Virus record (IMG/VR): IMGVR_UViG_3300043432_000237
Location: 1 to 64,000 of that record
DNA from: a virus
Lineage: Duplodnaviria > Caudoviricetes
Reading direction: 5' to 3' (one strand)
DNA length: 64,000 nucleotides
Part shown: piece by piece, positions 36,052 to 53,658 of the stretch
Layout: each line of letters opens with the position of its first letter
Position numbering within the stretch: the first letter of the stretch is position 1
The notes under the pieces: generated by a model
Told to the model about the DNA's origin: nothing
Databases searched by the model: none
What the model saw: only the letters and a program-made list of their open reading frames with translations
Program-made: the position numbers and the translations under genes

Positions 36052-36056
36052 GAGCA

Positions 36057-36491: not shown

Positions 36492-36495
36492 CTTT

Positions 36496-36524
36496 TTGGG
36501 TCACCCGACCCAGAGTGATAGGCT
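36496..36524 (+). promoter_or_regulatory. Sigma70-like promoter
   Basis: TTGGGT-N17-TAGGCT with TGn extension, preceded by a T-run. Confidence 0.5.
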
Positions 36525-36543
36525 GCACGAGACAGGAGACAGA

Positions 36544-37194: not shown

Positions 37195-37200
37195 GCGCCA

Positions 37201-37479
37201 ATGGACTGGGAGCAGGCAGCAGCTGGGACCGGGGACTATCACAGCTACCCGATCACGCCGGGCGTGGGCGACGTCTACAGTGACGCCGCGGTCAGCCAGG
37301 CGCGCGCCATTTGGGGTGCGCTCAGCGTCGCGGGCGCTGCTGCCAGTGCCTACCACGGCTACAAGCGCACGCAGAGCGTCGGCTGGGCGTTCGTGTGGGC
37401 GCTGTGCGGCTCGATCGCTCCGGTCGTCACCGTGCCCGTGGCCATCGCGCAGGGATTCGGCAAGCCGAAGCGAGGGTGA
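37201..37479 (+). CDS. Small two-TM membrane protein
   Basis: PGVGD; AASAYHGYKR..SVGWAFVW..IAQGFGKPK. Confidence 0.7.
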   Translation: MDWEQAAAGTGDYHSYPITPGVGDVYSDAAVSQARAIWGALSVAGAAASAYHGYKRTQSVGWAFVWALCGSIAPVVTVPVAIAQGFGKPKRG

Positions 37480-37485
37480 GCGGAG

Positions 37486-38937: not shown

Positions 38938-38940
38938 GGA

Positions 38941-39546
38941 ATGACTATGCAGATGCCCGGCTACCCTCCTGGAGTTCCCAACCCGCTCGTGCGGCACGTG
39001 CACCCGTACCCCACGCGCTTCCATGGCACGATCTACACGCGCCCGGTGTTCGGGCTGCCGTACGTGCTCAGCCCGGGCAACGTCGCCATGCCGGGTGAGA
39101 TCGCCGGCCTGGGCGACTACAACGTGGGCCAGGGCGTGTTCCGCCCGGGCGGCTACGGCGGCGGCGTGTTCGACGGCAACCTCGCGGGACTCGGAGCCAC
39201 GGATCCGGTGGCGGCGGCCCAGACCAACCTCACCCAGCTGCAAGCCACCATTTCGGCGCTGGCGTCCCAGATGGCGTCGGTGACGCCCAACCAGGCCGCT
39301 CTGCTGGCAGAGCAGATCGCTGCGCTGCAGAAGCAGGAGACCGCGCTCAAGGCGGAGATCAAGAAGCTGCAGAGCGTGCCGAAGGTGCCCGTGTCGTTCT
39401 CGCCTCCAGTGGCCGCTCCGCCGGTGCAGACGGCGCCAGTCGAGTCGCTGATGGTGCCCAGCGACAACAAGTGGGTCATGTTCGTGGTGGGTGGCGGAAT
39501 CGCCATCGGTGCGCTGATCTACCTCAAGAAGAAGAAGAAGATCTGA
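38941..39546 (+). CDS. Tail-anchored membrane protein with short coiled coil
   Basis: IAGLGDY, LAGLGAT, GVF motifs; TM followed by KKKKK. Confidence 0.75.
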   Translation: MTMQMPGYPPGVPNPLVRHVHPYPTRFHGTIYTRPVFGLPYVLSPGNVAMPGEIAGLGDYNVGQGVFRPGGYGGGVFDGNLAGLGATDPVAAAQTNLTQLQATISALASQMASVTPNQAALLAEQIAALQKQETALKAEIKKLQSVPKVPVSFSPPVAAPPVQTAPVESLMVPSDNKWVMFVVGGGIAIGALIYLKKKKKI

Positions 39547-39980
39547 TGTACGTCTCGCTCGGAGCCGAGCTGCAGCACTTGCCACTGCCGGGACTCTCCA
39601 GCGGTGGCTCGTGCAGTATGGCGTCCAACGCCTACAGCGTGTTGACCGGTCGCGTGCAGGATGCCTTGGCCGAAGAAGGCGCCTCGCTGATCTCGGACGG
39701 CATCTGGAGCAAGCGCACCTGTGCGGGCTGGTGGCTGGTGATGGAAGAGGCGCCGACCGAGTCGGGCGTGCGCGAGCTGCTGGGCGACTACGTCCCGACG
39801 CAGTGCAAGTCCATCAGCGTGCCCGCCTGCCCGCGCCCGAGCGCGGCCGAGCTGGCGGCGGTCAAGGTCGCCAAGCCGGGCTGGCAGGCCGACATCGGCG
39901 GCAAGCCCTGGAACCTGTGGCTGGTGGGCGGCGTGGTCGCCGTGGCCGCTGCCTTGGCCTACACGCGCCGCAACAAGTAG
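39546..39980 (+). CDS. Tail-anchored protein with degenerate PG-binding-like domain
   Basis: MYVSLG start; VQDAL..DGIWSKRT; TM followed by RRNK. Confidence 0.65.
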   Translation: MYVSLGAELQHLPLPGLSSGGSCSMASNAYSVLTGRVQDALAEEGASLISDGIWSKRTCAGWWLVMEEAPTESGVRELLGDYVPTQCKSISVPACPRPSAAELAAVKVAKPGWQADIGGKPWNLWLVGGVVAVAAALAYTRRNK

Positions 39981-40029
39981 CGGTCGGGATTTTTGCAGCC
40001 GTTGGCTGCCCCGTGATGTACTCGGCCTC

Positions 40030-40671
40030 ATGAGTTTCGGAATTCTCGGAGGTCTGGGAGCAACGGGACTGGGGTCAGCTCCATACCCGGTGTGCTCCTA
40101 CTTCGGCTACGAGTGTCAGCACTGGAACGAGTACCCGCCGGACATTCAGAGCCAGATCATCGCCGCGGCGAAGCAGATCGACGCGAACCTGCAGGCGCAG
40201 TACGCGACCATCCGCAACGACGGCGGCTGCGACGCCAACGTCTCGGGTCGTCTGGCTGGCGCGCTCAAGGAGAAGCTGATCAAGTCCGGTGGTGATCCGG
40301 CCAAGATGAGCGCGGACGACTCCAGCTTCGGCCCCAAGGAGTGCGCCGAGTGGTGGAGGATCTACGACCGCGGCGTGACCATGGACGACGTGCTGGCGGT
40401 CAGCACGGCCGTGCTGGGCGGCGTGAAGGCGTCGGTCCAGACGATCTGCCAAAACAAGATCACGCTGCCGACCTGCGTGAAGCCGCCGCCGCCGCCGCCC
40501 CCCGGCGGTGGCAGCAGCAGCGGTGGCGGTGGTGGCGGAGTGATCCTGCCGCTGCCCATGCCGGCCAAGCCCAAGGTCAGCTACGCCAACCTGCTGGTGA
40601 CGGGCGGCGTGGTTGCCGCCGTCAGCGTGACGGGCTACTTCGTGGCGAAGAAGAAAGGCTGGCTCAAGTGA
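40030..40671 (+). CDS. Tail-anchored protein, paralogue of 39546..39980
   Basis: LGGLGATGLG leader; DSSFGPKECAEWW; TM followed by KKKG; promoter-like TTGCAG-N18-TGTACT upstream. Confidence 0.7.
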   Translation: MSFGILGGLGATGLGSAPYPVCSYFGYECQHWNEYPPDIQSQIIAAAKQIDANLQAQYATIRNDGGCDANVSGRLAGALKEKLIKSGGDPAKMSADDSSFGPKECAEWWRIYDRGVTMDDVLAVSTAVLGGVKASVQTICQNKITLPTCVKPPPPPPPGGGSSSGGGGGGVILPLPMPAKPKVSYANLLVTGGVVAAVSVTGYFVAKKKGWLK

Positions 40672-41039
40672 AGCGAGTCAACGTGGACGTGAGCAACTTT
40701 CGCGGCCCGCTCGATCCGGTGCCGTTCGCGGGGCTGGGTGCAGCGGCGCCCGGCTGGCCGGGTGGGCGCTCCTACTGGAACGTCTCGAACTTTCGCGCTC
40801 CCTACGACACCGGCCGGTTCAACGCGAGCCTGATGGGCCTGGGCGCGACGCAGGTGGCCGTGCCGCCGAGCGCGCTCTTGCCACCGCGCTTCCAGGAGTA
40901 CCTCGCCACGGGCGCCCCGATGCGCTCGGTCGTGGGCGCCGTGCAGCCCGCGCTCTGCCAGATCCCGCGCTGGGCCTGGGCGCTGATTGCCGCAGGCGCC
41001 GGCTACGCCGCCTATCGGGCGTTCAAGCCCAAGACCTGA
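40668..41039 (+). CDS. Tail-anchored protein with internal peptide repeat
   Basis: VSNFR.P.D...GLGA twice; C-terminal TM. Confidence 0.65.
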   Translation: MKRVNVDVSNFRGPLDPVPFAGLGAAAPGWPGGRSYWNVSNFRAPYDTGRFNASLMGLGATQVAVPPSALLPPRFQEYLATGAPMRSVVGAVQPALCQIPRWAWALIAAGAGYAAYRAFKPKT

Positions 41040-41049
41040 GAGAGCGACC

Positions 41050-41871
41050 ATGGGAAGCCTACAGGCACTTGCGTCCAAGTTCGTGATGGATCCGCCGCCG
41101 GATGACCCGGCAGGTCGGCTGCAGTTCCTTGCTCAGCATCTGCAGTACGTCGAGCAGATCATCGCGAAGCTGCCGCTGCCCGGCTACATCGCGGAGGATC
41201 AGGCGCTCCGCGACATGAACTCCGTGCGCGATCTGCTGGACAAGCTCAAGGACGTGACGGTGTCCACGGCTTTCCAGCTGCCCGGCGACGTGATGCGCAA
41301 CGTGATCCTGGGTCTCTGGCACGTCTGCAACTACGGCGTGAAGGTGCACTCTCCGGAGTGGCGCCAGCTGGCGCTGACCAACAAGGTCATGACGGCCGCC
41401 GAGCTGGAGCAGGACTACCTGGCGCGCCTGGGTGTGATGCAGGTGATCATCCGCATCCAGCAGTCGGGCGCGCTCAATCCGCTGTTCGCGAAGAAGGGTT
41501 CGATCACCTCGCTGGGTGAGCCCATCACGACCATCGCCATCGTCGCCATCGTCGCCACCGCCGTGGTGCTCGTCGCGCTGGGCTACGCGCTGATGCAGTG
41601 GACGGTGCTGTCCCTGAACAACAAGAAGATCCTGGACCGCCTGGACAAGATCTGTTTTGACTCGCAGGGGCGACCCATCGAGGCTGTCAAGGCCGACTGC
41701 GTGAAGGCCTACCAGGATGCCAACGACAAGCTCAACACGCAGGGCCCCAAGAACCCGATCGAAGACCTGGTGAAGTACGCGGCCATCGGTGGCGCCGTGT
41801 ACCTGGGCGTGCTGTTCCTGCCTGACATCGTGCGCACGCTGCGCGAGACCCGCGCTGCGTCCAAAGCCTGA
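41050..41871 (+). CDS. Two-TM membrane protein
   Basis: SLGEP followed by long hydrophobic ITTIAIVAIVATAVVLVALGYALM; second TM near the C-terminus. Confidence 0.7.
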   Translation: MGSLQALASKFVMDPPPDDPAGRLQFLAQHLQYVEQIIAKLPLPGYIAEDQALRDMNSVRDLLDKLKDVTVSTAFQLPGDVMRNVILGLWHVCNYGVKVHSPEWRQLALTNKVMTAAELEQDYLARLGVMQVIIRIQQSGALNPLFAKKGSITSLGEPITTIAIVAIVATAVVLVALGYALMQWTVLSLNNKKILDRLDKICFDSQGRPIEAVKADCVKAYQDANDKLNTQGPKNPIEDLVKYAAIGGAVYLGVLFLPDIVRTLRETRAASKA

Positions 41872-41884
41872 GGAGCATCCAGTC

Positions 41885-42223
41885 GTGATCTACTCACAGT
41901 GGAAGCCCGACACGGGGCGCTACGAGTACTACGAGTCGGCCGAGCGCTACGCGCGCGGCGACGATCTGCCGGTGCCGCGCCTGCGTGCCACCTCTCCAAT
42001 CGGTGTGCCCAGCACCGAGATCGGTCGCACGCCGACCCAGGCTCTGCGGCGCGTGGGCGAGGGCGAGCATGCCCGCGGCATGATCCTGCCGCTCAGTCGC
42101 GTGGGGCTGCTCGGCAGCACGACGCTCGACAGCATCCCGACCTGGGTGTGGGTGGGGCTGGGCGTGGCGGCGGGGTACGTCTTGTCGCGTCCCATCGCCA
42201 AGATGCTGAGGAGCGCGCTGTGA
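41885..42223 (+). CDS. Tail-anchored protein
   Basis: GAGGAG SD; YSQW.P..GRYEYYE; C-terminal TM. Confidence 0.65.
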   Translation: MIYSQWKPDTGRYEYYESAERYARGDDLPVPRLRATSPIGVPSTEIGRTPTQALRRVGEGEHARGMILPLSRVGLLGSTTLDSIPTWVWVGLGVAAGYVLSRPIAKMLRSAL

Positions 42224-42795
42224 GTCGACGCTACGTCGTCAACCGCGCCGAGTCGTTCGAGGCGGCCAAGCGCATCCGGGAGACGTTCCAGGACGCCCCC
42301 ATGCGCCGGCAGACCCCTGTGCCCTGGCAGTGGCCGAGCAGCATGCAAGAGGTGGGGATCTGCATTGGCGTCATGTACGCCTCCAACAAGTGGCAGTCCA
42401 ACCCGCGCACGCTGGTCGACTACAAGCACCTTGCCGAAGGTCCGCAGCGCCTCTACGTGCGCCGCGGTTTTCTGCGCGAGCACAAGACTCCCGAGCGCCA
42501 GCTGCGCGTCTGTGGCCCGATGGTGCCGCTCGACAAGCCGATGCCCACCGCGTTCGCGGAGCTGGCCAAGATCTTGGGCATCCAAGCCCAGCTCTATCAG
42601 GGCACCAACGAGCGCTTCGTGGTGCCCGAGGGCGACGAGCACATCTACCAGGTCAACATTCCCCGCGCGCACCTGGGGGCGGCCAAGCACCCCAAGACAG
42701 GTGAGACGTTCTTGCTGGTCTACAACGCCGACGGTGTTCACTGCATCATCTGCGGTGATGAGCTGGACGTCGAGAAGGACGGCATCGTGGGATGA
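42220..42795 (+). CDS. Hypothetical soluble protein
   Basis: GAGGAG SD; YVVN leader motif; DYKH. Confidence 0.65.
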   Translation: MSRRYVVNRAESFEAAKRIRETFQDAPMRRQTPVPWQWPSSMQEVGICIGVMYASNKWQSNPRTLVDYKHLAEGPQRLYVRRGFLREHKTPERQLRVCGPMVPLDKPMPTAFAELAKILGIQAQLYQGTNERFVVPEGDEHIYQVNIPRAHLGAAKHPKTGETFLLVYNADGVHCIICGDELDVEKDGIVG

Positions 42796-43106
42796 GCTAC
42801 GTCGTGGCCCGCCCGCAGAAGAGCCTCGGCGTCGTCCCGGGAGGACAGAACTTGTGGCTTGGACTCGCACTGTCAGTGGTCCTGCTGTACGTGTTCCGCG
42901 CGGAGCTGTTCGGTGGTGTGTCCACCGCGGGCTGGTACGTGGAGCTGTACGAGTATCCGGTGGGCCACCGGGAGCGTCGCATCAAGCTGGTGGAGGGACC
43001 GTTCGAGAGCAAGCGTGAGGCGAACGAAGTCGCGCGCGAGAACGACGACGTCTGGTATCCGCGCGTGGTCTACCGTGAGCGCGCGTACACGGAAGAGGAC
43101 TTCTGA
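42792..43106 (+). CDS. Small membrane protein
   Basis: MSY..KSLG leader, TM, GPFESK.EA domain. Confidence 0.6.
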   Translation: MSYVVARPQKSLGVVPGGQNLWLGLALSVVLLYVFRAELFGGVSTAGWYVELYEYPVGHRERRIKLVEGPFESKREANEVARENDDVWYPRVVYRERAYTEEDF

Positions 43107-44209
43107 TGGCCTACACCGCAATGAACCTGCAACCGATGGGCAAACAGATCATTGCCCGCGGCGGTTCGACCGACAGCTCCAGCATGCAGGTCTACGCACA
43201 GACGGCCGGCGCGATCGGTGGCGCCGCGATCTGCGCAGCCAGCGGTGCGGGCGCCGTGGCTGCTTCGATCTGTGCCCAGGTGGGCGGCGCAATCGTCAAG
43301 GTCATCGCGGGCAACATCGGCACCCCGGCCACGTCAGGCAACGCCTACGGCTTGTTCAATTTGTGGAAGGACGCCATGGTGCCGCAGGCGCGCATCGCCC
43401 AGGAGGGTTCGATGGCGGTGCGCGCGTACCTGACCATGCGCGATCAGCTGATCGACGAGCTGGCCCAGCAGCTGCGCCCGTTGCAGTCTGTGGAGTCAGG
43501 TAGGGCCTGGGCCGACGCTCGTCTGAGTCAGCTGGGCTTGCCGCCCGCACCCGTGTTGCCGCAGTGGGCGCCCCGTGACGACCTCTGGCAGGCCTACAAG
43601 GACAACCAGGTCTGGAGCAAGAATCCGCTCGGAGATCCTCCGACGTGGAAGTCGTCGCTGACGACGCCACTCTTCCCGACCAAGAACTACTGCACCTACG
43701 GCGAGATCTGGGGCTACCAGAGTCCGTCCATCAATCAGCTGCGCGACAAGGTCGGGCTGAGCTGCTCAGATCTGTTGTTGCTCTGGCTCTACCCGATGGG
43801 CGCTCCTGCACCGCCGGGTGAGCCGATCAACTGGGCCATGGTGGGCGCCTGGGAGCTGGCGCAGCGCTTCACGCAGCTGAGCATGATCAGTATCCCAGTG
43901 CACCAGGCGAGCGCCGTGCGCGTCGTCCGCCCCGGCGTGAAGGTGACGCAGCTGCCGTACAAGAGTCCGCAGCAGGTCGTGACGGCCACGGTGACTCCGT
44001 CGCAGCATGCCACGCTGTTGGTGCTCAACCTGCAAGAGGCCAGCGCGAAGCTCAAGCAAGAGGTCAAGGCCCGCTTGGCTTCGTCAGCTGCCGTGGCGCT
44101 CGTCCAGCTGCGCACCGAAAGTGATCGCAAGCTCACGTGGGCTGTCGCAGCTGGCGTACTGGGCGTCGGCGCTGCCGGCTACTGGTGGCACCGACGCAGC
44201 AAGCGATGA
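43106..44209 (+). CDS. Membrane protein with Gly/Ala-rich N-terminal hairpin and C-terminal anchor
   Basis: AGAIGGAAICAASGAGAVAASICAQVGG; TM followed by HRRSKR. Confidence 0.7.
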   Translation: MAYTAMNLQPMGKQIIARGGSTDSSSMQVYAQTAGAIGGAAICAASGAGAVAASICAQVGGAIVKVIAGNIGTPATSGNAYGLFNLWKDAMVPQARIAQEGSMAVRAYLTMRDQLIDELAQQLRPLQSVESGRAWADARLSQLGLPPAPVLPQWAPRDDLWQAYKDNQVWSKNPLGDPPTWKSSLTTPLFPTKNYCTYGEIWGYQSPSINQLRDKVGLSCSDLLLLWLYPMGAPAPPGEPINWAMVGAWELAQRFTQLSMISIPVHQASAVRVVRPGVKVTQLPYKSPQQVVTATVTPSQHATLLVLNLQEASAKLKQEVKARLASSAAVALVQLRTESDRKLTWAVAAGVLGVGAAGYWWHRRSKR

Positions 44210-44400
44210 ACGTCTTGCCGCCGCGTTTCCCGTACTTGGGGACCGCACAAAAAGCGAACGCCGGGCGATCACTCCCGGCGCACGCAGCGCCCCACCTGAA
44301 GCAGGCAGGTAGGACATGAACAAGATACACGACCAGTACCTCACGAACCAGGCGCAAATTAGCCTGAAAAATAGGCCTGTCGGGCACGTGTGTGAAAAAT

Positions 44401-44430
44401 TGACGAGCTGCCCGCCTCCCCGCTAGGGTG
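44401..44430 (+). promoter_or_regulatory. Sigma70-like promoter of the core/capsid operon
   Basis: A-tract then TTGACG-N18-TAGGGT in a locally AT-richer intergenic region. Confidence 0.6.
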
Positions 44431-44505
44431 CTCTTCAGTAACGGAATCCCAGGTTGGTCCGGAACCACTTGGCCTGCTCCGCGACAGCGGTGAGGTGTGC
44501 CCAAG

Positions 44506-46287
44506 ATGCCCGGAACCATCGGACGAGCGTTCAAGATCAGCAGCAAGCAGGCGAAGAGCTACGGCTACGCCCGCCCCAACCCTGGCGTGACGGCCATCGC
44601 CGCCGTCAACGGCCGCGGGTCCTACACCGCGCGCACGGCCATGACGGGTCGCAGCGCTGCCGGTCGCCTGTCGCACGCGCGCAACGCGACTCGTCGCCAG
44701 CTGAGCGCGGCCGACCGCGCCGCGTTCGCCAAGCGCATGCGCGACGCGCGCCAGCGCAAGATGACCGGCAACATGTCCCGCTCTGCGGCGGGCAAGAAGA
44801 ACATCAAGCGCGCCATCGCCACCCGTAAGGCATGGGGTCGCAGTCTGCAGCGCGGGCACCGGTATCGCGTCGGCGCCGCCGCTTACGGAAAGTCACCCGG
44901 GGCCGCCAAAAAGCTGTCTCCGGGCGTCTACACAGCAAATCGGAGGACAAGAATGCTCAGGAAAAATCGCACCACCGCACGTCGGCGGGGGCGGGTTCTC
45001 CGGAAGAGCCGCAAGGCGCGCCGGATGACCAGCAACCCGAAGGCGCGTCGCACGACTCGCCGCCGCCGGAAGAAGACCACCGCAGCCGCCGCGCCGAAGC
45101 GCCGCCGTCGGGTGAAGCGCCGCCGCAAGGCGACCGCTCGCAAGACGCCGGTGCGCCGTCGCCGCCGCCGCAAGGCCAAGGCCAGCTCGGCAACCCCGAA
45201 GCGTCGCCGTCGGGTGAAGCGCAAGAGCCGCAAGGCGAGCGCTCGCAAGTCGCCGGTGCGTCGTCGTCGTCGCCGCAAGGCCAAGGCCAGCTCGGCCGCG
45301 CCGAAGCGTCGCCGCCGCGTGAAGCGCCGCAAGGGTCGCAAGGCGAAGGCCATGTCGCCCAACCGTCGCCGCCGGGTGAAGCACCGCCGCAACCGTCGCC
45401 GGTCCGGCCGTCGCCTGGGGATGTTCCGCCGCAATCAGGGCTTCATGACCACCCTCAAGGAGGGCGCGAAGGTCGGCCTGATCGTGTTCGCGGGCGTCGC
45501 GGCCCACAAGGCCGCCACCAAGCTCCTGACCGAGCTGGTGCTGGACAAGTTCCTCGGCGCCGCTGCCACCCCGGCCACCCCGCCGGCTCCGGCCGCGGTT
45601 TCGGGACTCGAAGTCCTGCAGCCCTACAAGAAGATCATCGCGGGCATCGCGGTTGCCGGTCTCGGCAGCTTCGCAGCCAACGCCGTGATCAAGGACCAAG
45701 AGACCAAGAAGTACGCCATCGCCGGCATGTGGGGCTCGCTCCTGCACACCGTCATCGTGGACCTCTTGGCCGCCTTCGGTGGAGCCACCGGTGGCAAGGT
45801 TGCGCAGTACCTGTCGGGCTACGACGACAGCACCGCGTACTCCCTCGGCGCTTCGATCATGCCGATGTACCGCCCCGTGGGCGAGTACTTCGATCAGGGC
45901 ATGGGCGAGTACTTCGAGGGCGCCACGGCCGGTCTCGGCAACTACGGCATGAACGGCGACATCTACCAGGCGCAAGCCGGGTACGGCGCCATGCCGGACT
46001 CGAACTCGGGCCACATCGATCCGTCCAGCGACCTCGACCGCGAGCTGACCCTCGCGGAAGCGGCAGCGGGCGTCGGTGCTCTGCCGTCGTACGAAGCAGC
46101 CGCCGGTCTCGGCGACTTCATCGGCAACGGCCACAAGGCGATCGGGTCGCGTTCCACCTGGATCCCGGGTGAGACGAACCCCGGCACCTGGGCACCGGTG
46201 ACCAGCGTCAGCCGCGGCCAGGCCGCGACGGCCATGGTCCCGGCCGGCATCCTGCAGACCGGTGGAGGCTCGGGCGTCTTCGGCTGA
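44506..46287 (+). CDS. Protamine-like Arg/Lys-rich core protein fused to hydrophobic helices and a motif-rich acidic tail
   Basis: GAGGTG SD; about 300-aa basic region with PKRRRRVK repeats; about three hydrophobic helices; tail with repeated GLG/GMG/GVG. Confidence 0.8.
   Translation: MPGTIGRAFKISSKQAKSYGYARPNPGVTAIAAVNGRGSYTARTAMTGRSAAGRLSHARNATRRQLSAADRAAFAKRMRDARQRKMTGNMSRSAAGKKNIKRAIATRKAWGRSLQRGHRYRVGAAAYGKSPGAAKKLSPGVYTANRRTRMLRKNRTTARRRGRVLRKSRKARRMTSNPKARRTTRRRRKKTTAAAAPKRRRRVKRRRKATARKTPVRRRRRRKAKASSATPKRRRRVKRKSRKASARKSPVRRRRRRKAKASSAAPKRRRRVKRRKGRKAKAMSPNRRRRVKHRRNRRRSGRRLGMFRRNQGFMTTLKEGAKVGLIVFAGVAAHKAATKLLTELVLDKFLGAAATPATPPAPAAVSGLEVLQPYKKIIAGIAVAGLGSFAANAVIKDQETKKYAIAGMWGSLLHTVIVDLLAAFGGATGGKVAQYLSGYDDSTAYSLGASIMPMYRPVGEYFDQGMGEYFEGATAGLGNYGMNGDIYQAQAGYGAMPDSNSGHIDPSSDLDRELTLAEAAAGVGALPSYEAAAGLGDFIGNGHKAIGSRSTWIPGETNPGTWAPVTSVSRGQAATAMVPAGILQTGGGSGVFG
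45094..45400 (+). repeat. Tandem 102-105-nt coding repeat (Arg clusters)
   Basis: PKRRRRVK units begin at 45094, 45196 and 45301. Confidence 0.8.
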
Positions 46288-46340
46288 GCCACACGGGCGA
46301 TGAGCTGAGCGCTTCGTCGGCGCGCAGCGAGGCCCCACGA

Positions 46341-46380
46341 CGAGCCCGGGAGGGTGCGGAAAACCGCATCCCCGGGCTCG
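46341..46380 (+). other. Strong RNA hairpin upstream of the major capsid candidate
   Basis: CGAGCCCGGG/CCCGGGCTCG outer stem, GGTGCGG-AAAA-CCGCATC inner stem. Confidence 0.7.
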
Positions 46381-46468
46381 ACGTGTCGAAAGAGGACGAG
46401 AGGAACCACGCCTCTCAAAAAATGGTGCTCGCGCTTTGCGGGCAGTAGTCCTCAGGAGAACAAGGACC

Positions 46469-47221
46469 ATGGCAAAAGTAGTTTCCATTCGCGAGCGCGT
46501 TCACCAGCCCTTCTACGACACCCTCGTCCGCACGGCGGGTCTCACGGCCGGTGCGCTCACCGACAACACCTCCCTCTTCACCAGCAACGGTGCACGCACC
46601 GAGGCGACGACCAACCTGATCAACGGCGCCACGCTGCCCTCCGATCAGAGCCACGTCGTGCTCGCGCTCCGCGTCTTCACCTGGTACCGCAACCCGCGCC
46701 TGCGCGTGGCCGGTGCCGGTGCCGGCGAGATCGCGCAGAACGGTGACTACAACTTGCTGGCCCCCTGGCTCGCGGGCGGCGCGGCCGTCGGCCAGGCCCC
46801 CGGTCAGGTGCAGGACGTGTACCGCCTGCACTGGCAGACCGAGGAGCAGCTGCACTGGTCGTTCGGGACCGGGCTCAAGAACTCGATCGACAACATGCCG
46901 ACCTGGTACTTCCCGGCGGGCGGCGGCATCTCGGGCGACATGGGTGGGACGACCGACCTCATCCACTGGCAGAACTCGGGCTACGACGGGCACGCCGGCA
47001 TCCTGCGGCTCGCTCGCGCCGTCCTGATTCCGCCTCGCCAGAACATCCTGTGCCAGGCCAAGGTCTTCGCCCTCCCGAACGCGGGTCAGGCGGTCACCTT
47101 CGGCACGACCCAGGGTGCGCGCGACATGCTCAACCTCCGCGACAACCTGAACGCCATCGACGCGATCGGGAAGTGCGTGATGTTCTGCTTCGACGGCCTC
47201 TTCTCGCGCGACGTTCAGTGA
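46469..47221 (+). CDS. Putative major capsid protein (single jelly roll), 250 aa
   Basis: Strong SD, flanking hairpins, strongly biased codons; QPFYDT..SLF..TNL..GATLP..HVVLALRV...LIPPRQNI...VMFCFDG beta pattern; follows the core-protein gene. Confidence 0.6.
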   Translation: MAKVVSIRERVHQPFYDTLVRTAGLTAGALTDNTSLFTSNGARTEATTNLINGATLPSDQSHVVLALRVFTWYRNPRLRVAGAGAGEIAQNGDYNLLAPWLAGGAAVGQAPGQVQDVYRLHWQTEEQLHWSFGTGLKNSIDNMPTWYFPAGGGISGDMGGTTDLIHWQNSGYDGHAGILRLARAVLIPPRQNILCQAKVFALPNAGQAVTFGTTQGARDMLNLRDNLNAIDAIGKCVMFCFDGLFSRDVQ

Positions 47222-47230
47222 TCCCACACG

Positions 47231-47264
47231 CGCCGGTGGGGGTCCTCTCCGGCCCCCTCCGGCG
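47231..47264 (+). terminator. GC-rich hairpin after the capsid gene (weak U-tract)
   Basis: CGCCGG.GGGGG...CCCCC.CCGGCG. Confidence 0.5.
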
Positions 47265-47291
47265 TTCGTCTGCTCCCGAAGAGCGTGGCAC

Positions 47292-47360
47292 GAGCGGCGC
47301 CGCGCTGGCAGCCCAAGCCGCTACGGGATCTGGTTCGCCAGGTCTCGTAGCGGCCCGCTC
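47292..47360 (+). other. Structured intergenic RNA element with UUCG tetraloop
   Basis: GCCGCTACGGGATCTGG-TTCG-CCAGGTCTCGTAGCGGC (47317-47354), enclosed by GAGCGG/CCGCTC. Confidence 0.65.
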
Positions 47361-47414
47361 AGACCCTTTGATCCTCAACTCCCAGCCCTCGCCTGAGCGA
47401 GCACGGGGTTTCCC

Positions 47415-48365
47415 ATGAACGTCAATCAGCAGCTCTTGAACCAGCTCAACGCCGCGGCGCAGAACGCCCGCGTCGCATTCGAGCGCGCCGCCCGCGCCGA
47501 ACAGCAGGGCCAGGCCTTGTACGCCCAGGCATCGCAGCTCGCCGGTGAGCTGGAGGCCATGAAGCGCGTCGTCGCCAACCTCGAAGTCTCGCGCTCCGGC
47601 GCTCCGGCTTCCATCCAGCGGGTGGAGAACATCCCGGGCCGACGCATCCCGTTCGATGCACTGGTCGACATCGCCATCGGTGACTCGGTGCAGTCGGTGC
47701 AGCAGGGCTCGATCACCATCTCGCAGGAAGGCCCGTTCGTGGGCGTCAGCCGCGTGATGGCGCTGCTCAGCACGTTCGAGTTCCAGTACCGCGATCCGGT
47801 CTCGGGCGCCGCCAGCGCCTTCCAGGGTCGCTCCTACGGCCGCTACCGTCCCGCGCACAGCGCCTGGGACCTGAACGACAGCATGGTCTCGCCGCAGGTC
47901 TCGCAGGCCGTGGGCTTCCCCGGCACCGGCGCGCCGCACGTGACCAGCCCCGGCACGGCGTCCAGCTTCCGCTCGATGGAGGGCGACTTCCGCATCATCG
48001 TCGAGAACGCCGGCTCCAGCTTCCCGCGCTCGAACCAGGAGGTCCCCTCGGCGTTCTGGTCGCGCGCCATCAACGAGCCCTTCGAGCTGGGCGCGCTCGA
48101 CGTCTTCGAGCGTGGCGAGGTCATCGTCTTCAAGGTGCTGCCGCTGCACCCGAACAACCCGAGCTACGGCAACCTGAGCGCGTTCGGCGCGCCCAACGCC
48201 AGCTTCCCGTTCGTGACGGCCGGCTTCGATGCCGTCGAGGGCGTCAACGACCAGAACGACGCGAACGCCTCCACGACCGATCCCGTGACGCGCCTGGCGA
48301 ACGCCATCGTCACGATCGGCTACCACGGCTACCGCATCATCCAGCAGCCGGGTCTGCCGGGCTGA
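47415..48365 (+). CDS. Putative second capsid protein (N-terminal coiled coil plus jelly roll)
   Basis: GSITISQEGPFVGV...DVFERGEVIVFKV...VTIGYHGYRI. Confidence 0.55.
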   Translation: MNVNQQLLNQLNAAAQNARVAFERAARAEQQGQALYAQASQLAGELEAMKRVVANLEVSRSGAPASIQRVENIPGRRIPFDALVDIAIGDSVQSVQQGSITISQEGPFVGVSRVMALLSTFEFQYRDPVSGAASAFQGRSYGRYRPAHSAWDLNDSMVSPQVSQAVGFPGTGAPHVTSPGTASSFRSMEGDFRIIVENAGSSFPRSNQEVPSAFWSRAINEPFELGALDVFERGEVIVFKVLPLHPNNPSYGNLSAFGAPNASFPFVTAGFDAVEGVNDQNDANASTTDPVTRLANAIVTIGYHGYRIIQQPGLPG

Positions 48366-48382
48366 GGCGTGCCGACCGAGAG

Positions 48383-48415
48383 GGTCACCGGAGGGATTGC
48401 GAGCCTCCGGTGGCC
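48383..48415 (+). terminator. Hairpin between capsid-like genes
   Basis: GGTCACCGGAGG-N9-CCTCCGGTGGCC followed by ATTTC. Confidence 0.55.
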
Positions 48416-48436
48416 ATTTCGAGGTAGGCTCACACC

Positions 48437-49312
48437 ATGACGGACTACCGCAACCAGCTGTCGTCAGCCTTCCAGCTCCCGAGCATGGGTCATGTGCCGC
48501 GCGACGCCGGAGGCCCGCTCGGTCCCGGTGGTGGAGCGCACCCTGCGCCGAGCGCTCAGGCTGCGCCGCACCCGGAGCCCGCGCCGGACTTCGTGCGCAC
48601 GGTCGCAGCCGGCGGCGCGCTGCCCGAGCTGTTGCTGCACCCGACCTTCCTGCCCTTCGAGAACTTGTTCCGGCGGCTGCCGGAGGAGGCGATGTTCAAC
48701 GCCTCGCCCGACCGCCCCTACAAGTTCGAGCTGGGCGCGTTCGAGGTCCCCAAGAACCAGGCGCTCCTGCTCGCCGACTTTCGGTTCGCGCTGCATCGCT
48801 TGAGCGGCGCCGCCGCCTCCGACACGGTGCCGATGGAGCCCGAGCGGCTGAGCATGCTGCTGGCGTTCGATCTCACGATCGCCAACAACCGCAAGGCGCA
48901 GCTGCGCATGGAGATCGATCCGGTCACCATCCAGGCACAGAAGGAAGCCTTCCAGAGCCAGGTGTCGGGCGGCACGATCTTCCCCGGCGCGCGCACGGGC
49001 GGCTCTGCGCTCAGCCCGGCCAACAACCTGCAGTACGCGCTCTCGCGCTTCGCGCAGTCGGTGGTGCCGGGTGGCCTGGGCCTCTCGGGCTTGCCGAACC
49101 GCCCGCGCCGCCTGGGCGCCGAAGACTTGCCCTTCACGATGGTCGCCGTCGAGACCCAGCGCGTCCAAGCGAGCTGCGTGGTCTTCCGGCCCATCCCCAT
49201 CCCGATCGCGTTCTTCCAGTGCGACATTTCGGGAGTGCTGATGAGCATGAACACGATGCGCGCGCTCTTCGATGCAGTGAAACCTGCCGTCGAGCGTGGA
49301 GGCATCCGATGA
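48437..49312 (+). CDS. Putative third capsid-like jelly-roll protein
   Basis: FELGAFEVPKNQALLL...FTMVAVETQRVQASC...FFQCDISGVL. Confidence 0.55.
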   Translation: MTDYRNQLSSAFQLPSMGHVPRDAGGPLGPGGGAHPAPSAQAAPHPEPAPDFVRTVAAGGALPELLLHPTFLPFENLFRRLPEEAMFNASPDRPYKFELGAFEVPKNQALLLADFRFALHRLSGAAASDTVPMEPERLSMLLAFDLTIANNRKAQLRMEIDPVTIQAQKEAFQSQVSGGTIFPGARTGGSALSPANNLQYALSRFAQSVVPGGLGLSGLPNRPRRLGAEDLPFTMVAVETQRVQASCVVFRPIPIPIAFFQCDISGVLMSMNTMRALFDAVKPAVERGGIR

Positions 49313-49430
49313 CTTGGGAAAGCGACCGGCCCATGGAGCCCGCGAGCGTTGCAGCGGATCGGACAACTGCTGCAGCGAGCACGAGCCTTCCGGCTTGGGC
49401 CGGTCGTTTCTCCATTCGTGAGGTGAGCTG

Positions 49431-50180
49431 ATGGCCCTGGGAGCATATTTCCGAGCAGTCGAGAGTCAGCCGATCCCGGAGCCGCAGCTGGACGGGCTGG
49501 GCTCGCAGGATCAGTTCGCGGTCGAGGCGTTGCAGGAGCTGCTGGAGGCACAGGGTATCCGGCCTGCGGCGGCGATGGCGCCCTGGGGCATCCAGGAGGG
49601 CAGCGTCGACTGGCAAGCCGAGCACCCGGACCACAGCCTGCTGCTGTATCCGATCAGCGATGGCCTGCTGACGCAGGTCGAGAAGTCGACCTTCGGCATG
49701 CCCGTGCCGGCCGTCGCGATCTTGACCACCACGCCCGTCGTGCTGGCCAAGGCGCGCGAGGCCTACGACGATACGCCGTACCGCTTTCACGCCGTCGAGG
49801 GCGTCTACCGCCTGGACGACAAGAAGCCGGTGCCGACGATCTACTTCCTCTACTGGGGTCACTACCGCGAGCCCAACGACAGCGGAGGTGGCCGCTCGGC
49901 GCTGCAGAGCGTCGCGTCCATGCTCGGCGGCTCGCTCGTCTTCCCGTTGCAGCTGCCGCGCACCGGCCAGGAGCGCCAGCACCCGTCGGTGACCTTCCAG
50001 CTCGCCCTGGCGGCGCAGCTGAGCGGCCAGCCGGCGGCAGCGCTGCCGCCGACGGCGGTGCCCAGCGCGCTGGCACCCAGTGCCGCCCCGGCGCCTAGCG
50101 CGGCCTGGTGGCTGCTCCCGGTGGTCGGCGGGCTGGCCGCCTATGGCGGCTACCGCTGGTGGAAAGGACGCAAGAGCTGA
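49431..50180 (+). CDS. Tail-anchored membrane protein
   Basis: MALGAY, LDGLGS; TM followed by RWWKGRKS. Confidence 0.7.
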   Translation: MALGAYFRAVESQPIPEPQLDGLGSQDQFAVEALQELLEAQGIRPAAAMAPWGIQEGSVDWQAEHPDHSLLLYPISDGLLTQVEKSTFGMPVPAVAILTTTPVVLAKAREAYDDTPYRFHAVEGVYRLDDKKPVPTIYFLYWGHYREPNDSGGGRSALQSVASMLGGSLVFPLQLPRTGQERQHPSVTFQLALAAQLSGQPAAALPPTAVPSALAPSAAPAPSAAWWLLPVVGGLAAYGGYRWWKGRKS

Positions 50181-50329
50181 TGGCCAAGATCGTTGCTATC
50201 TCGGGCACCGAGCCCCAACCCAACCAGGCGGCACTCATGAGCGCAGCAGCACTCGGATGGACGGTCGTGCTCGGCGTGACCTTCTACATCTTCTGGAGCA
50301 CGGCCAAGCCGGCCCGCAAGCGGAGGTAG
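50180..50329 (+). CDS. Small tail-anchored peptide
   Basis: TM followed by KPARKRR. Confidence 0.6.
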   Translation: MAKIVAISGTEPQPNQAALMSAAALGWTVVLGVTFYIFWSTAKPARKRR

Positions 50330-50332
50330 ATC

Positions 50333-50548
50333 ATGATCTCGCTCACCGATCTGGGAACCGTGGCCGACGTCGCCCAACAGGTCGAGGCCAACCCCTTCAT
50401 GCTGGCGGGCCGTCTGATCGGCCTGAGCGGTGACGAGCAGAAGGCGGGCGTGCCGATGTGGGCGTGGGTCTCGCTGGCGTTCGTGGGCGGAGCAGTCGCG
50501 ACGCTGAAGTACGGTCCGCAGATCCGCGCCAAGCTCAAGCAGCTCTGA
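50333..50548 (+). CDS. Small membrane protein
   Basis: GGAGG SD; TDLGT; C-terminal TM. Confidence 0.65.
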   Translation: MISLTDLGTVADVAQQVEANPFMLAGRLIGLSGDEQKAGVPMWAWVSLAFVGGAVATLKYGPQIRAKLKQL

Positions 50549-50600
50549 TTTTTGGAGGTCGAGCAGACCTTTGATAGCGTCGGACCTGGAGCCACTCAAC

Positions 50601-50942
50601 ATGTACCAGCCAACCAGCAAAGCAGACGGGATCTTCTCACACGGTGTGGGTCCGAGCTACGCCTACGGCGCGCAGCGAACGGCGCACGCAGACGGCTCGC
50701 TCGGCGAGTACGCCTACGGCGCGCGCACCTCTTCGTTCGCGGACGGATCACTGGGTGGCTGCAGCAGCTGCTCGGGCATGGGCGCCCTGACGCCCGAGCT
50801 GGCGACCAAGGTGTTGTCCGCGATGCAGCCGCAGTTGCCCGCTGCACCGCCGATGTCACCGGTGGTGCGTGGTCTGCTCATCGGCGGCGGCGTGCTGGTC
50901 GTGGCCGCCATCGGCTACGCCGTGATGAAGAAGAAGGGATGA
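50601..50942 (+). CDS. Tail-anchored protein with duplicated YAYGA..ADGSLG motif
   Basis: GGAG SD; upstream TTGGAG-N17-TAGCGT; TM followed by MKKKG. Confidence 0.7.
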   Translation: MYQPTSKADGIFSHGVGPSYAYGAQRTAHADGSLGEYAYGARTSSFADGSLGGCSSCSGMGALTPELATKVLSAMQPQLPAAPPMSPVVRGLLIGGGVLVVAAIGYAVMKKKG

Positions 50943-50946
50943 GGTC

Positions 50947-51216
50947 ATGGCGCTAACGAATAGGTGCCTGAGCGGTCTCGGCGCGGCGTTCATCGAGATG
51001 CCCCGCGCCCGCCTCGGGTTCCGCGCGGGCGGCGTGTTCTCGCCGCGCGCTTCGGCCGCCGAGTACAAGCCGAGCCTGGGTGAAGTGCAGGCCGTGACGG
51101 AAAGCGCCAGCTCGATCGAACAGCGCCAGGAGAAGCAGAAGCTGCTGCTGGTGACGAGCCTGGCCAGCCTGGCCGTCGGCGCCGCCATCACCTACGCTGT
51201 GATGAAGAAGAGCTGA
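50947..51216 (+). CDS. Small tail-anchored protein
   Basis: LSGLGA, GGVF, SLGE; TM followed by MKKS. Confidence 0.7.
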   Translation: MALTNRCLSGLGAAFIEMPRARLGFRAGGVFSPRASAAEYKPSLGEVQAVTESASSIEQRQEKQKLLLVTSLASLAVGAAITYAVMKKS

Positions 51217-51221
51217 CCGCC

Positions 51222-51515
51222 ATGCAAGACGGTATCTTTCTCTCGTCTCCCACGCGGGGAACGCTGCCCACGTCGCGCAACGCGCTCATTGTGGCTCAGC
51301 GGCCGACTTCGCTGGGCCGAGTCAACTCGGCCGGCGTGGCCCTCACGTTCGGTGTGTTCGGTTTGGTGCTGGCCGGAGGAGCCTACGGGGGCTACCAGCT
51401 GGGTAGGCGTTACAAGCATCCCCTGGTGGGCGCCGCCGCGGGTGCTGCCGTCGCGTACGTCCCCGCCTGGATGGCGGGTGCTGTCACTGCGCTTCTCACG
51501 ATGGGCAGCGTGTGA
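51222..51515 (+). CDS. Small multi-TM protein
   Basis: DGIF, TSLG, glycine-zipper-like TMs. Confidence 0.65.
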   Translation: MQDGIFLSSPTRGTLPTSRNALIVAQRPTSLGRVNSAGVALTFGVFGLVLAGGAYGGYQLGRRYKHPLVGAAAGAAVAYVPAWMAGAVTALLTMGSV

Positions 51516-51521
51516 GGATCC

Positions 51522-52964: not shown

Positions 52965-53019
52965 AGCAGCCACCGAACCCTTGGCAGCGCCAGGCGCCCA
53001 GTGATAAGTCACCAGGCAG

Positions 53020-53610
53020 ATGGCCAATGAGCTGTTCGAGGCGCTGAGCAAGGTTGCGTTCTCCCTGCAGGGCTTGCCGCGCGGCTCACTGGGTGGCCCG
53101 GTCTGGGAAGAGCTGAAGCCCTGGCTGGAGAAGTTGATGTCACACGCGGCGCCCAAGTGGTTGCCGCGCCTGAGCTTCGCGTTCCCCTGCCAGGTGGCTG
53201 TGCATCGACAGGGCGTGCCCATTGGGCCCTGTCCGCACCGGGCCATCGCGAGCTGCGACGTCTGCGGTGGCGCCTGCTGCCTGCACCACGCGCGCATCGA
53301 CCAGCTGGGCGACGCCATCTGCTACCCGTGCGTGGCGCGCGCTGTGGCGGCACACCGTGGCGGCGGCGCACCTCCGGCGCCCCCTCCGCGCAGCAAGGCA
53401 GAAGAGCTGCGCTGGGCCCGCAAGCTGCTCAAGGTCAAGCCGGAGGACGACTGGGAGACCATCCGCGCGGCGCACCGGCGCGAGAGCGGAAAAACCCACC
53501 CGGACCGGCAGCGCACCGACAAGGCCAAGGCCAAGGCCACCGAGCGCTTCAAGCTGGTGCAGCAGGCGTTCGAGGTGCTCAAGCTCGAACACGGCCCCAA
53601 GACGGGCTGA
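53020..53610 (+). CDS. B-box-like Zn finger plus C-terminal J-domain
   Basis: CDVCGGACCLHH..CYPC; ARKLL.V..IRAAHR..THPDR..FKLVQQAFEVL. Confidence 0.85.
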   Translation: MANELFEALSKVAFSLQGLPRGSLGGPVWEELKPWLEKLMSHAAPKWLPRLSFAFPCQVAVHRQGVPIGPCPHRAIASCDVCGGACCLHHARIDQLGDAICYPCVARAVAAHRGGGAPPAPPPRSKAEELRWARKLLKVKPEDDWETIRAAHRRESGKTHPDRQRTDKAKAKATERFKLVQQAFEVLKLEHGPKTG

Positions 53611-53658
53611 CGTTCAGGTTTTTGGTCGATGGCCGAGCCGGGTGGTAGCCTGACCTCC

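Follow-up and report, generated by a model that had tools for sequence, protein, structure and literature searches.

A conserved polycationic protein with a predicted membrane anchor, encoded beside a candidate jelly-roll capsid gene in a 125-kb freshwater virus

In the phages studied so far compaction is mechanical: a terminase or a PRD1-type ATPase pumps naked DNA into a preformed shell. Condensation by proteins is regarded as a trait of eukaryotic viruses and of a few archaeal ones. In adenovirus the Arg/Ala-rich polycations pVII, V and pre-mu (pX) condense a dsDNA genome within an icosahedral virion of the jelly-roll lineage, and in the microvirus phiX174 protein J combines a basic, DNA-binding N-terminus with a hydrophobic C-terminus that tethers the genome inside the capsid. 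We know of no studied phage that packs its DNA against an internal membrane by means of a protein such as the one described here and, to our knowledge, loading a genome by condensation and closing the shell around it has been established or suggested elsewhere only in a 20-kb archaeal virus, in PM2 and in adenovirus-like eukaryotic viruses.

The archaeal virus, SPV1 (Portogloboviridae), has a single-jelly-roll shell of VP4 and VP10, an inner lipid layer and circular dsDNA wound with VP1, and no packaging ATPase figures among the functions assigned in its ICTV profile (PMC8459092). PM2 (Corticoviridae) infects bacteria and has an internal membrane and a circular genome, whose DNA is thought to be enclosed as membrane and shell form; in current thinking its transmembrane proteins P3 and P6 register the capsomers, and a patch of virus-specific membrane contacts the DNA during particle formation (PMC6356626). 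The ascovirus protein P64, a cationic virion protein of 64 kDa and pI 12.2 with a basic domain, has been shown to condense viral dsDNA of 100-200 kb (PMC6163548). For adenovirus, a precursor idea and a debate on concurrent packaging run parallel to the case considered below (PMC12090768, PMC10081844).

Here we analyse a gene from the circular 125-kb genome of an uncultured freshwater bacterial virus (IMG/VR record IMGVR_UViG_3300043432_000237), using as our window positions 1 to 64,000 of that record. No account of this virus lineage or of the protein was found in the open-access literature.

The polybasic gene product and its family

The gene and the parts of its product are as follows.

44506..46287, + strand: focal gene, polycationic membrane protein of 593 aa (ORF, codon-position GC, homologues, alignment)
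44506..44850, + strand: conserved N-terminal domain, residues 1-115, with the motif GRAFKIS..GYGY..NPGVTAIAAxNGRGSY (alignment; AlphaFold2 pLDDT 60-80)
44851..45435, + strand: polybasic low-complexity region, residues 116-310 (composition, alignment, motif counts)
45088..45374, + strand: tandem repeat of 35 aa (period 105 nt, 2.4-2.7 copies)
45469..45777, + strand: three hydrophobic helices, residues 322-342, 372-394 and 398-424, likely membrane anchor (hydropathy; AlphaFold2 pLDDT 75-87)
45793..46284, + strand: conserved acidic Gly/Ala/Tyr-rich tail, residues 430-593, with GLGEYF-type motifs and a ...VPAGILQTGGGxGVFG end (alignment; predicted disordered)

The longest frame opens at a GTG at 44497 and ends at 46287, with an alternative ATG at 44506; because homologues share the first residues of the ATG form, 44506 is the likely start. 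GC content by codon position (0.63, 0.60 and 0.86 at first, second and third positions) resembles that of the neighbouring genes and, together with conservation of the frame across homologues, rules out a non-coding artefact of a GC-rich repeat. A total of 28 homologues were found, with E values from 6e-98 to 1e-36, all confined to metagenomic virus contigs of about 110-180 kb, and look-ups in the ESM Atlas gave matches to viral clusters only. At E <= 0.01 the full protein had no match among the Pfam-A and PHROG families, those of protamines and adenovirus core proteins included, and residues 1-120 had no PDB sequence match at E <= 10.

Residues 1-300 are 40% Arg and Lys (28% and 12%, respectively) and 1% Asp and Glu, for a net charge of +118, so that the basic half shows the extreme Arg/Lys content, near lack of acidic residues and low complexity of the protamine-like class; no other large protein of the 125-kb genome is strongly basic. 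Within the N-terminal domain residues 51-113 are predicted to be helical. The repeats further on match one another at 82-84% of positions, and the polybasic region contains six SPKK-like motifs of the form [STA]P[KVN]RRRR, where 0.3 would be expected, before it ends with an invariant FRRN (nt 45424-45435) whose Asn, N310, is the same in 21 aligned sequences.

Whether the basic region is kept among relatives had been named in the initial annotation as a point on which its reading could fail. Every homologue with readable DNA carries the basic half, with net charges of +115 to +165 across the seven related loci read as DNA, and on this point the reading stands. Three 'short' homologues that seemed to lack it are two truncated gene calls and one gene cut by a contig end; in a further two, known as gene calls, the stretch upstream is uncalled or called in antisense. 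Gene callers often miss or truncate the gene, and the family is under-represented in protein databases as a result. Both the length of the basic half and its repeat units vary freely between lineages while charge is kept, which is typical of charge-driven nucleic-acid binding.

Beyond the basic half, hydropathy cores lie at about 322-342, 376-396 and 403-425, and the AlphaFold2 model places helices at 311-350, 372-394 and 398-424. Helices 1 and 3 are of moderate hydrophobicity (KD 1.4-1.6), leaving the number of true membrane crossings uncertain, at one to three. The tail carries a net charge of -10, ends in GGGSGVFG and contains three G[LM]G sites and an AGVG, at positions that are invariant across the family. 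ORF, composition, hydropathy and structure prediction therefore agree with the layout given in the initial annotation, namely about 300 N-terminal residues dominated by Arg and Lys with repeats of 34-35 aa, about three hydrophobic helices and an acidic tail ending in GSGVFG; the xGLG-type sites that it listed in the tail do exist, but 'many' overstates their number.

The jelly-roll neighbour, the surrounding block and packaging genes

Four further features surround the focal gene.

46469..47221, + strand: 250-aa predicted jelly-roll protein, candidate capsid protein, the most conserved of the block (71-80% identity to relatives)
47415..48365, + strand: 316-aa conserved syntenic protein
48437..49312, + strand: 291-aa conserved syntenic protein
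35287..54194, + strand: block around the focal gene with about 13 membrane proteins, each tail-anchored and ending in a basic stub of +2 to +5 that follows its C-terminal TM helix

In seven related loci the focal gene lies directly upstream of the same 250-aa gene. Among the three genes that follow the focal one, fold prediction covered the 250-aa protein, whose AlphaFold2 model is a jelly roll (pLDDT 79.8, pTM 0.81). Its best matches in the PDB and BFVD are mainly viral capsid proteins, with SPV1 at the top (6oj0, Foldseek E 0.018; VIA Z 8.1, rmsd 3.7 over 136 aa), followed by P23-77 VP17 (Z 7.0), HHIV-2 and HCIV-1, all viruses that contain a membrane. The scores are moderate, since models with no clear match typically reach a best Z near 8. 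The best fold match in BFVD is a viral protein of 211 aa (E 7e-4). We regard the 250-aa protein as a candidate single-jelly-roll capsid protein with middling fold scores; the initial annotation, in placing the focal gene immediately upstream of the capsid gene, had the position right and is in keeping with the predicted capsid-like fold, while the capsid role itself is that of a candidate only.

The 250-, 316- and 291-aa families show no relation to one another by hhalign (probability <= 1%), so that they are not recognisable as three capsid paralogues, a common fold still being possible. All three shell candidates are close to neutral, with net charges of +4, -6 and +1. The basic stubs of the tail-anchored proteins suggest, from sequence, one cationic membrane face, and such a set of proteins would fit an internal virion membrane. 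Their N-terminal parts have a G-L-G-[EDNA]-[YF] motif in common with the focal tail. Complex prediction of tail residues 430-593 with the 250- and 316-aa proteins scored 0.00 and gives no verdict. Kinship with SSIP-1 was also considered, and no sequence relation was detectable: HMMs of locus families A1 and A2 had no match in JN880423, and hhalign of family A2 against SSIP-1 gp44, gp45 and gp46 gave probabilities below 1%.

Searches of this genome gave no Terminase_6N, Pox_A32 or FtsK match at E <= 1 and no HK97 (Phage_capsid) match, bearing in mind that Pfam and PHROG models could miss a motor gene or an HK97-type gene if it were divergent. A Walker A motif occurs in only three of its proteins: DnaB, a MoxR-like ATPase and a DnaC-like loader. 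Terminase and A32 matches were likewise absent from three relatives, among them a 179-kb record that has direct terminal repeats. The genome therefore shares with Portogloboviridae the lack of a packaging ATPase, as far as searches that could miss a divergent motor can tell, and the HK97-fold capsid and terminase of Caudoviricetes were not found in profile searches. About 18 proteins from the window and 4 from outside it had no head, packaging or tail PHROG match, with one exception: the protein at 112995-114260 matches a tailed-phage 'virion structural protein' (phrog_1645), and this counts against a tailless reading. ParB, a clamp and an integrase are encoded in addition to DnaB and the DnaC-like loader, and the replication genes point to a bacterial host. 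A scan of 185,579 reference genomes with patterns from locus families A3 and A1 found no relative from which a host could be assigned (family A2 has no stretch conserved enough for such a scan), and no match was found among INPHARED phages by megablast of 40-60 kb or by tblastn of the 316- and 250-aa proteins.

Asn motifs, candidate proteases and the precursor idea

In the initial annotation the protein was a precursor, later cut into protamine-like peptides. The G[LM]G sites, at residues 388-537, lie in the hydrophobic region and acidic tail, outside the basic half, and cuts there could not give protamine-like peptides. Nor are basic peptides in the focal protein bounded by (M/I/L)XGX-G sites, as they would be in adenovirus-type processing. 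Among the ORFs scanned there is no adenain-type (clan CE) protease, the only candidates being the following two.

25506..26285, + strand: protein resembling cysteine proteases of the papain family (C1), catalytic Cys and His motifs present, candidate processing enzyme
34754..35287, + strand: transglutaminase-core-like protein that has the Cys, His and Asp, heading the block, candidate protease or cross-linker

A different motif does mark the basic regions. Across the family 128 of their 211 Asn residues have L/M/F/Y/I/V/W at position -3, compared with 27.8 +/- 4.7 in shuffled sequences, these counts not being independent because the sequences are related and internally repeated; R or K mostly occupies position -2. 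Elsewhere in the proteome hydrophobic-x-x-Asn is not enriched (268 occurrences against 245 expected), which makes the motif specific to the focal protein and rules out a proteome-wide phi-x-x-N cleavage code. A cysteine protease of the virus might then cut the membrane-inserted precursor at these sites, including the invariant FRRN just ahead of helix 1, and so free protamine-like peptides, by analogy with the adenovirus protease acting on pVII and pre-mu. We consider this unlikely. The excess of the motif, its restriction to one protein and the invariance of N310 speak for it, as do the two encoded proteins with candidate catalytic residues; papain-type (family C1) enzymes favour hydrophobic residues at P2 and tolerate Arg at P1. 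However, the excess comes from related, internally repeated sequences, the motif might just as well mark units of DNA binding or helix caps, the gene for the papain-like protein is 19 kb away and outside the structural block, and the xGLG sites that the initial annotation named are absent from the basic half.

Proposed role and comparison with known systems

The reading we favour, with a probability only a little above even, is that the focal protein belongs to the virion core and condenses the genome on the inner membrane while the particle co-assembles without a motor. The virus would be a large, tailless, membrane-containing bacterial virus with this protein as a structural component of its core. 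The 300-residue polycationic half would bind the circular 125-kb genome through charge and through SPKK-like minor-groove motifs, neutralising and condensing it, while the three hydrophobic helices would fix that domain to the viral membrane. The disordered conserved tail may lie on the other side of the membrane or on its surface where, along with the tail-anchored proteins' N-terminal parts that carry G-L-G-[EDNA]-[YF], it could contact either the jelly-roll shell or a factor for assembly or processing. With no packaging ATPase found, the DNA would probably be enclosed as membrane and shell form around a condensed nucleoprotein and not be pumped into a preformed shell, much as has been proposed for PM2 and SPV1. 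The condensation-assisted co-assembly put forward in the initial annotation fits the missing motor genes of this genome and the missing terminase and A32 matches of three relatives, and its interpretation as a whole is partly supported, by the conserved basic half, the synteny and the lack of a detectable motor; its cleavage step lacks such support.

Placing the basic half at the inside of the viral membrane, as the initial annotation did, meets with a topological difficulty. A domain of charge +118 is unable to cross a membrane and so remains on the cytoplasmic face of the one it inserts into, and when PRD1 assembles, that face comes to point at the capsid and not at the DNA (PMC6356626). The core-protein model consequently needs a PM2-like or open-sheet route. 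The same geometry, by the positive-inside rule, would favour a linker between membrane and shell or a membrane-shaping scaffold, in which the basic half binds anionic lipid heads or an acidic inner capsid surface instead of DNA and the protein recruits, bends or sizes the viral membrane (PMC6356626). Its membrane anchor and constant position next to the shell gene are in keeping with such a role, yet the near-neutral shell candidates offer no acidic partner for the basic half, the charge of +115 to +165, together with the SPKK-like motifs and freely varying length, far exceeds what lipid binding needs, and a motor-less 125-kb genome would still need a condensing agent when no other basic protein is encoded. 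We think this quite improbable.

There is a similarly small chance, in our estimate one in the region of a tenth, that the protein is non-structural and stays unpackaged, a host-membrane protein that anchors replicating viral DNA at the assembly site or compacts the host nucleoid. The presence of ParB, DnaB, the clamp and the DnaC-like loader does imply that the element handles its own DNA; the gene, however, sits within a conserved, structural-looking block, adjoins the jelly-roll gene in every relative and is away from the replication genes, and its strongly conserved tail has a short motif in common with the tail-anchored proteins of that block. That the element is not a virus at all, but a plasmid or vesicle-forming element in which the protein has some other membrane-associated nucleic-acid function, seems to us scarcely credible. 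No hallmark virus gene was found by sequence, and ParB and an integrase are present, but the best PDB and BFVD matches of the jelly-roll model are mainly viral capsid proteins, no conjugation genes occur among the proteins scanned, and the relatives' contigs cluster at 110-180 kb with terminal repeats.

The core-protein reading can be extended, though we find the extension doubtful, to a lineage of 110-180-kb bacterial viruses without a packaging motor, in which a membrane-anchored protein of charge +115 to +165 condenses the genome, a jelly-roll shell closes around the core, and hydrophobic-x-x-Asn serves as a new maturation cleavage code that releases DNA-bound peptides from their anchor. 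If the core-protein reading is correct, a conserved, membrane-fixed polycation would represent a second, chromatin-like solution to packing DNA in bacteria, the size range of tailless membrane-containing phages would grow several-fold, and the unsettled question of concurrent versus sequential packaging would gain a tractable bacterial model.

The known systems each resemble this one in part. Protein J is under 40 aa and belongs to a membrane-free ssDNA virus, whereas the focal protein has 593 aa and a predicted membrane anchor. The adenovirus core proteins are small and soluble, without an anchor, and have no sequence relation to the focal protein (no Pfam match); adenovirus moreover has a eukaryotic host, and no counterpart of its packaging ATPase or of its clan CE protease was found in this genome. 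PM2, with its 10-kb genome, double-jelly-roll capsid protein and lack of a polycationic protein, is unlike this virus, and compaction of its DNA is attributed to supercoiling where here we propose a polycation. P64 is like the focal protein in size (64 kDa) and in a similar two-part design; it comes from an insect virus, has its basic domain at the C-terminus where the focal basic half is N-terminal, and is described in its abstract with no mention of a membrane anchor such as that predicted for the focal protein (PMC6163548). SPV1 is a 20-kb archaeal virus, compared with 125 kb and a bacterial host here, its DNA-coating protein forms filaments and, unlike the focal protein, is not described as membrane-anchored or polybasic, and the likeness of its capsid protein to the 250-aa protein is one of moderate fold similarity (Z 8.1) with no sequence similarity detected. 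Its capsid protein is nevertheless the best structural match of the 250-aa protein, and the SPV1 virion plan matches the one that we infer here from genes alone.

Architecture and conservation of the polybasic protein

The longest ORF at the focal locus spans 44497-46287 on the plus strand (596 aa), and a start at the ATG at 44506 yields a protein of 593 aa whose initial residues agree in the alignment with the starts of its homologues. Its GC fractions at codon positions 1, 2 and 3 (0.63/0.60/0.86) are like those of neighbouring genes, and the antisense and off-frame ORFs that overlap it were set aside as an expected by-product of a repeat of 66-68% GC. The intergenic stretch before the gene (44210-44505, ∼300 bp) is unusually long and poorer in GC, and it contains a TTGACG-like box and, upstream of the ATG, a ribosome-binding-like GGTGAGG site; judged from these sequence features, the gene may begin its own transcription unit.

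As the initial annotation had described, the first 300 residues are dominated by Arg and Lys (40%, with 1% Asp+Glu; net charge +118) and contain repeats of 34-35 residues, for which Tandem Repeats Finder gives a 105-nt (35-aa) unit at 45088-45374 in 2.4-2.7 copies with 82-84% matches. Six SPKK-like [STA]P[KVN]RRRR motifs are found in this half against 0.3 expected, and no other large protein encoded in the genome is strongly basic. The three hydrophobic helices noted previously are recovered both from hydropathy (cores at ∼322-342, 376-396 and 403-425) and from AlphaFold2 (311-350, 372-394 and 398-424; pLDDT 75-87). The 164-residue tail is indeed acidic (net charge -10) and ends in GGGSGVFG, although the "many" xGLG sites ascribed to it was generous, the protein having three G[LM]G sites and one AGVG; the tail is predicted to be disordered (AlphaFold2 pLDDT ∼35).

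Residues 300-593 have 28 homologues (E 6e-98 to 1e-36, 327-788 aa), none with a name or a Pfam domain. The C-terminal 290 residues of the family align well (identity 37-59%) and include the conserved blocks DGTAARLSAMYGLG, one to four GLGEYF units, NHIDPSSDLDRELTIAEAAAGVG and STWIPG...WAG...VPAGILQTxGGQGVFG, and GRAFKIS..GYGY..NPGVTAIAAINGRGSY is a motif common to the N-termini of the long homologues. The basic region that separates this motif from the C-terminal part is 150-500 residues long and always 28-51% Arg+Lys; it is unalignable across lineages and its repeat units differ. The N-terminal domain of the full-length protein has a net charge of +115 to +165 in each of the seven related loci with DNA, and the basic half is therefore a constant of the family, one that public gene calls often miss. 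Homologues of 327-350 aa were considered as evidence against a basic half and rejected, since those that could be checked are partial gene calls or contig-end cuts: P0022 is the C-terminal portion of a 701-aa ORF (L008:6882-8987), P0020 a portion of a 662-aa ORF (L011:1996-3984), and P0003 ends at a contig edge. For P0016 and P0028, judged from gene calls, the 1-1.4 kb upstream are either uncalled or called antisense. With the gene cut to its last ∼330 residues at the L008 and L011 loci, and a spurious antisense ORF called across the basic repeat in the window (44133-46488, minus strand), both the length and the frequency of the family are understated in protein databases.

Gene order and the candidate shell protein

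The gene immediately upstream of the 250-aa protein's homologue (46469-47221 in the window) is a focal homologue in the related loci L001, L002, L003, L008, L009, L010, L011 and L012, in the last with one insertion between, a single HNH-like endonuclease gene (L012:1072-1920); the pairing with a capsid candidate proposed initially thus recurs in every locus examined. The 250-aa gene is the most conserved of the block (identity 71-80% in L001-L003). Homologues of 47415-48365 (316 aa) come next and then, where the locus reaches that far, those of 48437-49312 (291 aa); profile-profile comparison finds no mutual similarity among the three adjacent proteins. L009, a relative of the whole block, is the 109-kb contig JBINOA010003492.1 of NCBI assembly GCA_043956695.1 (thousands of contigs), which could provide a clue to host or habitat.

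The 250-aa protein, with 93 homologues in 1.84 billion representatives, is modelled by AlphaFold2 from a 35-sequence alignment as a beta-sandwich (pLDDT 79.8, pTM 0.81). Foldseek returns no PDB match to this model at E < 0.001; SPV1 capsid chains rank highest (E 0.018, probability 0.98), and nearly every entry in its PDB list is a viral jelly-roll capsid protein, including those of SGIV, P23-77 (VP16/VP17), SH1, HHIV-2 and PBCV-1. The VIA search, which is independent of Foldseek, places SPV1 (6oj0) first (Z 8.1, rmsd 3.7, 136 aa), P23-77 VP17 second (Z 7.0) and HHIV-2 and HCIV-1 at Z 6.1-6.5, scores that are moderate in that Z 7-8 is frequent as a best score. One match was obtained in BFVD, to an unnamed 211-aa viral protein (E 7e-4). 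Because the two methods agree, despite moderate scores, the best available reading of the model is a single-jelly-roll shell protein as in membrane-containing viruses.

From 35287 to 54194 on the plus strand ∼13 proteins have one TM helix, at the C-terminal end, and immediately after it a stub of net charge +2 to +5 (KQKKG, KKKKKI, RRNK and MKKKG, for example), suggesting that one membrane face would be uniformly cationic. Of the nine occurrences of the motif [GSA][LMVI]G[EDNA][YF] in the 125-kb proteome, eight fall in the block 38941-54194, and the focal tail (45793-46284) accounts for three; G[LM]G is found 14 times in the block vs 5.6 ± 2.2 expected, with no enrichment elsewhere (15 vs 18.1). 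Given this concentration, the shell or a processing enzyme may be a common partner of the focal tail and of the N-terminal portions of the tail-anchored proteins, and the five-residue motif may be a docking or processing signal.

Genome content and possible processing

The IMG/VR record whose first half is the window comes from a freshwater metagenome and is 125,036 bp long; its first ∼128 bases recur at its end (1-128 and 124909-125036; IMG/VR class 'direct terminal repeats'), so that the genome is most likely ∼124.9 kb and circular, circularly permuted or terminally redundant. Pfam matches include DnaB, a DnaC/IstB-like loader, beta clamp, ParB and SNF2 helicase for replication and DNA handling, as well as a tyrosine integrase, sugar-modifying enzymes, glycosyltransferases and, together with a PHROGs match, the following:

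25506-26285, +, papain C1-like protein, Gln/Cys and His motifs kept (Pfam and catalytic residues)
34754-35287, +, transglutaminase-core protein, Cys/His/Asp kept (Pfam and catalytic residues)
53020-53610, +, J-domain (DnaJ) protein inside the structural-looking block, also in L009 and L010 (Pfam)
112995-114260 of the genome (L006:8995-10260), -, phrog_1645 protein, outside the window (PHROGs)

The papain C1-like and transglutaminase-core proteins are candidate maturation enzymes, and no signal peptide is obvious by eye in either; the J-domain protein may recruit host Hsp70 for assembly. Profile searches of this genome gave no match to Terminase_6N, Pox_A32, FtsK or HK97 Phage_capsid at E ≤ 1, Walker A motifs occur only in DnaB, the loader and a MoxR-like ATPase paired with a VWA protein, and neither terminase nor A32 was found in three related records, including a 179-kb genome with terminal repeats. 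Among the block proteins searched, none matches PHROGs. Apart from the 421-aa protein matching phrog_1645 ('virion structural protein', E 4.5e-95), which shares 35-39% identity with proteins of Puniceispirillum phage HMO-2011 and T4-like cyanophages, no link to tailed phages was seen in the genome.

The xGLG sites noted initially cannot release basic peptides, since none of them falls within the basic half. Another signal is seen when the basic regions are compared across 15 family members: 128 of 211 Asn residues have L, M, F, Y, I, V or W at -3 (phi-x-x-N, phi being hydrophobic), compared with 27.8 ± 4.7 in shuffles, none of 2,000 reaching 128, although these statistics overstate independence as the sequences are related and repetitive. 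A further 24 Asn have His at -3, R or K dominates at -2, and there is no enrichment of phi-x-x-N in the remaining proteome of this genome. N310, in FRRN ∼10 residues before helix 1, and N483 in the tail are invariant in the alignment. In at least 90% of aligned sequences the residue after N483 is Pro; in the window protein it is Gly. The motif may be a protease site, at which a papain-type enzyme would be expected to take phi as P2 and R as P1, given the specificity typical of family C1; it may instead mark Asn-dependent self-cleavage or the boundary of structural units, and we think it unlikely that the focal protein is actually processed.

Proposed role and comparison with known systems

Our best reading, to which we assign a little better than an even chance and which rests wholly on computation, is a membrane-anchored, DNA-condensing core protein encoded beside a jelly-roll shell gene. 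Such a protein would be a three-part adaptor, in which the cationic half serves as counter-ion of the genome, the helices tether that half to a membrane and the tail folds upon binding a partner, as suggested by a tail that is strongly conserved yet disordered alone. By arithmetic rather than measurement, the ∼250,000 phosphate charges of a 124.9-kb genome would be neutralised fully by ∼2,100 copies and to a quarter by ∼500. With no motor detected, the DNA would probably become enclosed in the course of assembly, a route that has been put forward for PM2 (PMC6356626) and that the nucleoprotein core of SPV1 implies (PMC8459092).

The difficulty lies in the topology. A domain of charge +118 cannot cross a bilayer and so would stay on the cytoplasmic face of the membrane entered; by the positive-inside rule the basic stubs of the tail-anchored proteins would be on the same face, thus giving one strongly cationic face. 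In the PRD1 route the cytoplasmic membrane face ends up capsid-facing (PMC6356626), and DNA on the cationic face would require a membrane closing around cytoplasmic DNA, through a PM2-like route or open sheets. It is chiefly this that keeps our confidence in a DNA-condensing core protein so restrained, and it favours both a protein that binds lipid or shell and one that is a non-structural tether. The initial interpretation has partial support; two elements of it, cleavage into protamine-like peptides and placement on the 'inner face' of the viral membrane, are hypotheses.

The focal protein matches no curated family model searched and is undescribed in the open-access literature searched; the finding is of high interest, its basis entirely computational. 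Such homology tests as were run gave negative results, and no sequence relation to phage SSIP-1 was detected. In function it would resemble adenovirus pVII/V/mu, ascovirus P64 and SPV1 VP1, the latter two compared by description only, and, in miniature, microvirus protein J; P64 is a 64-kDa cationic protein with demonstrated DNA condensation (PMC6163548). New relative to these systems would be that a very large polycation is fused with both a membrane anchor and a conserved tail, that it occurs in a bacterial virus, and that the genomes concerned, of 110-180 kb, have no recognisable motor.
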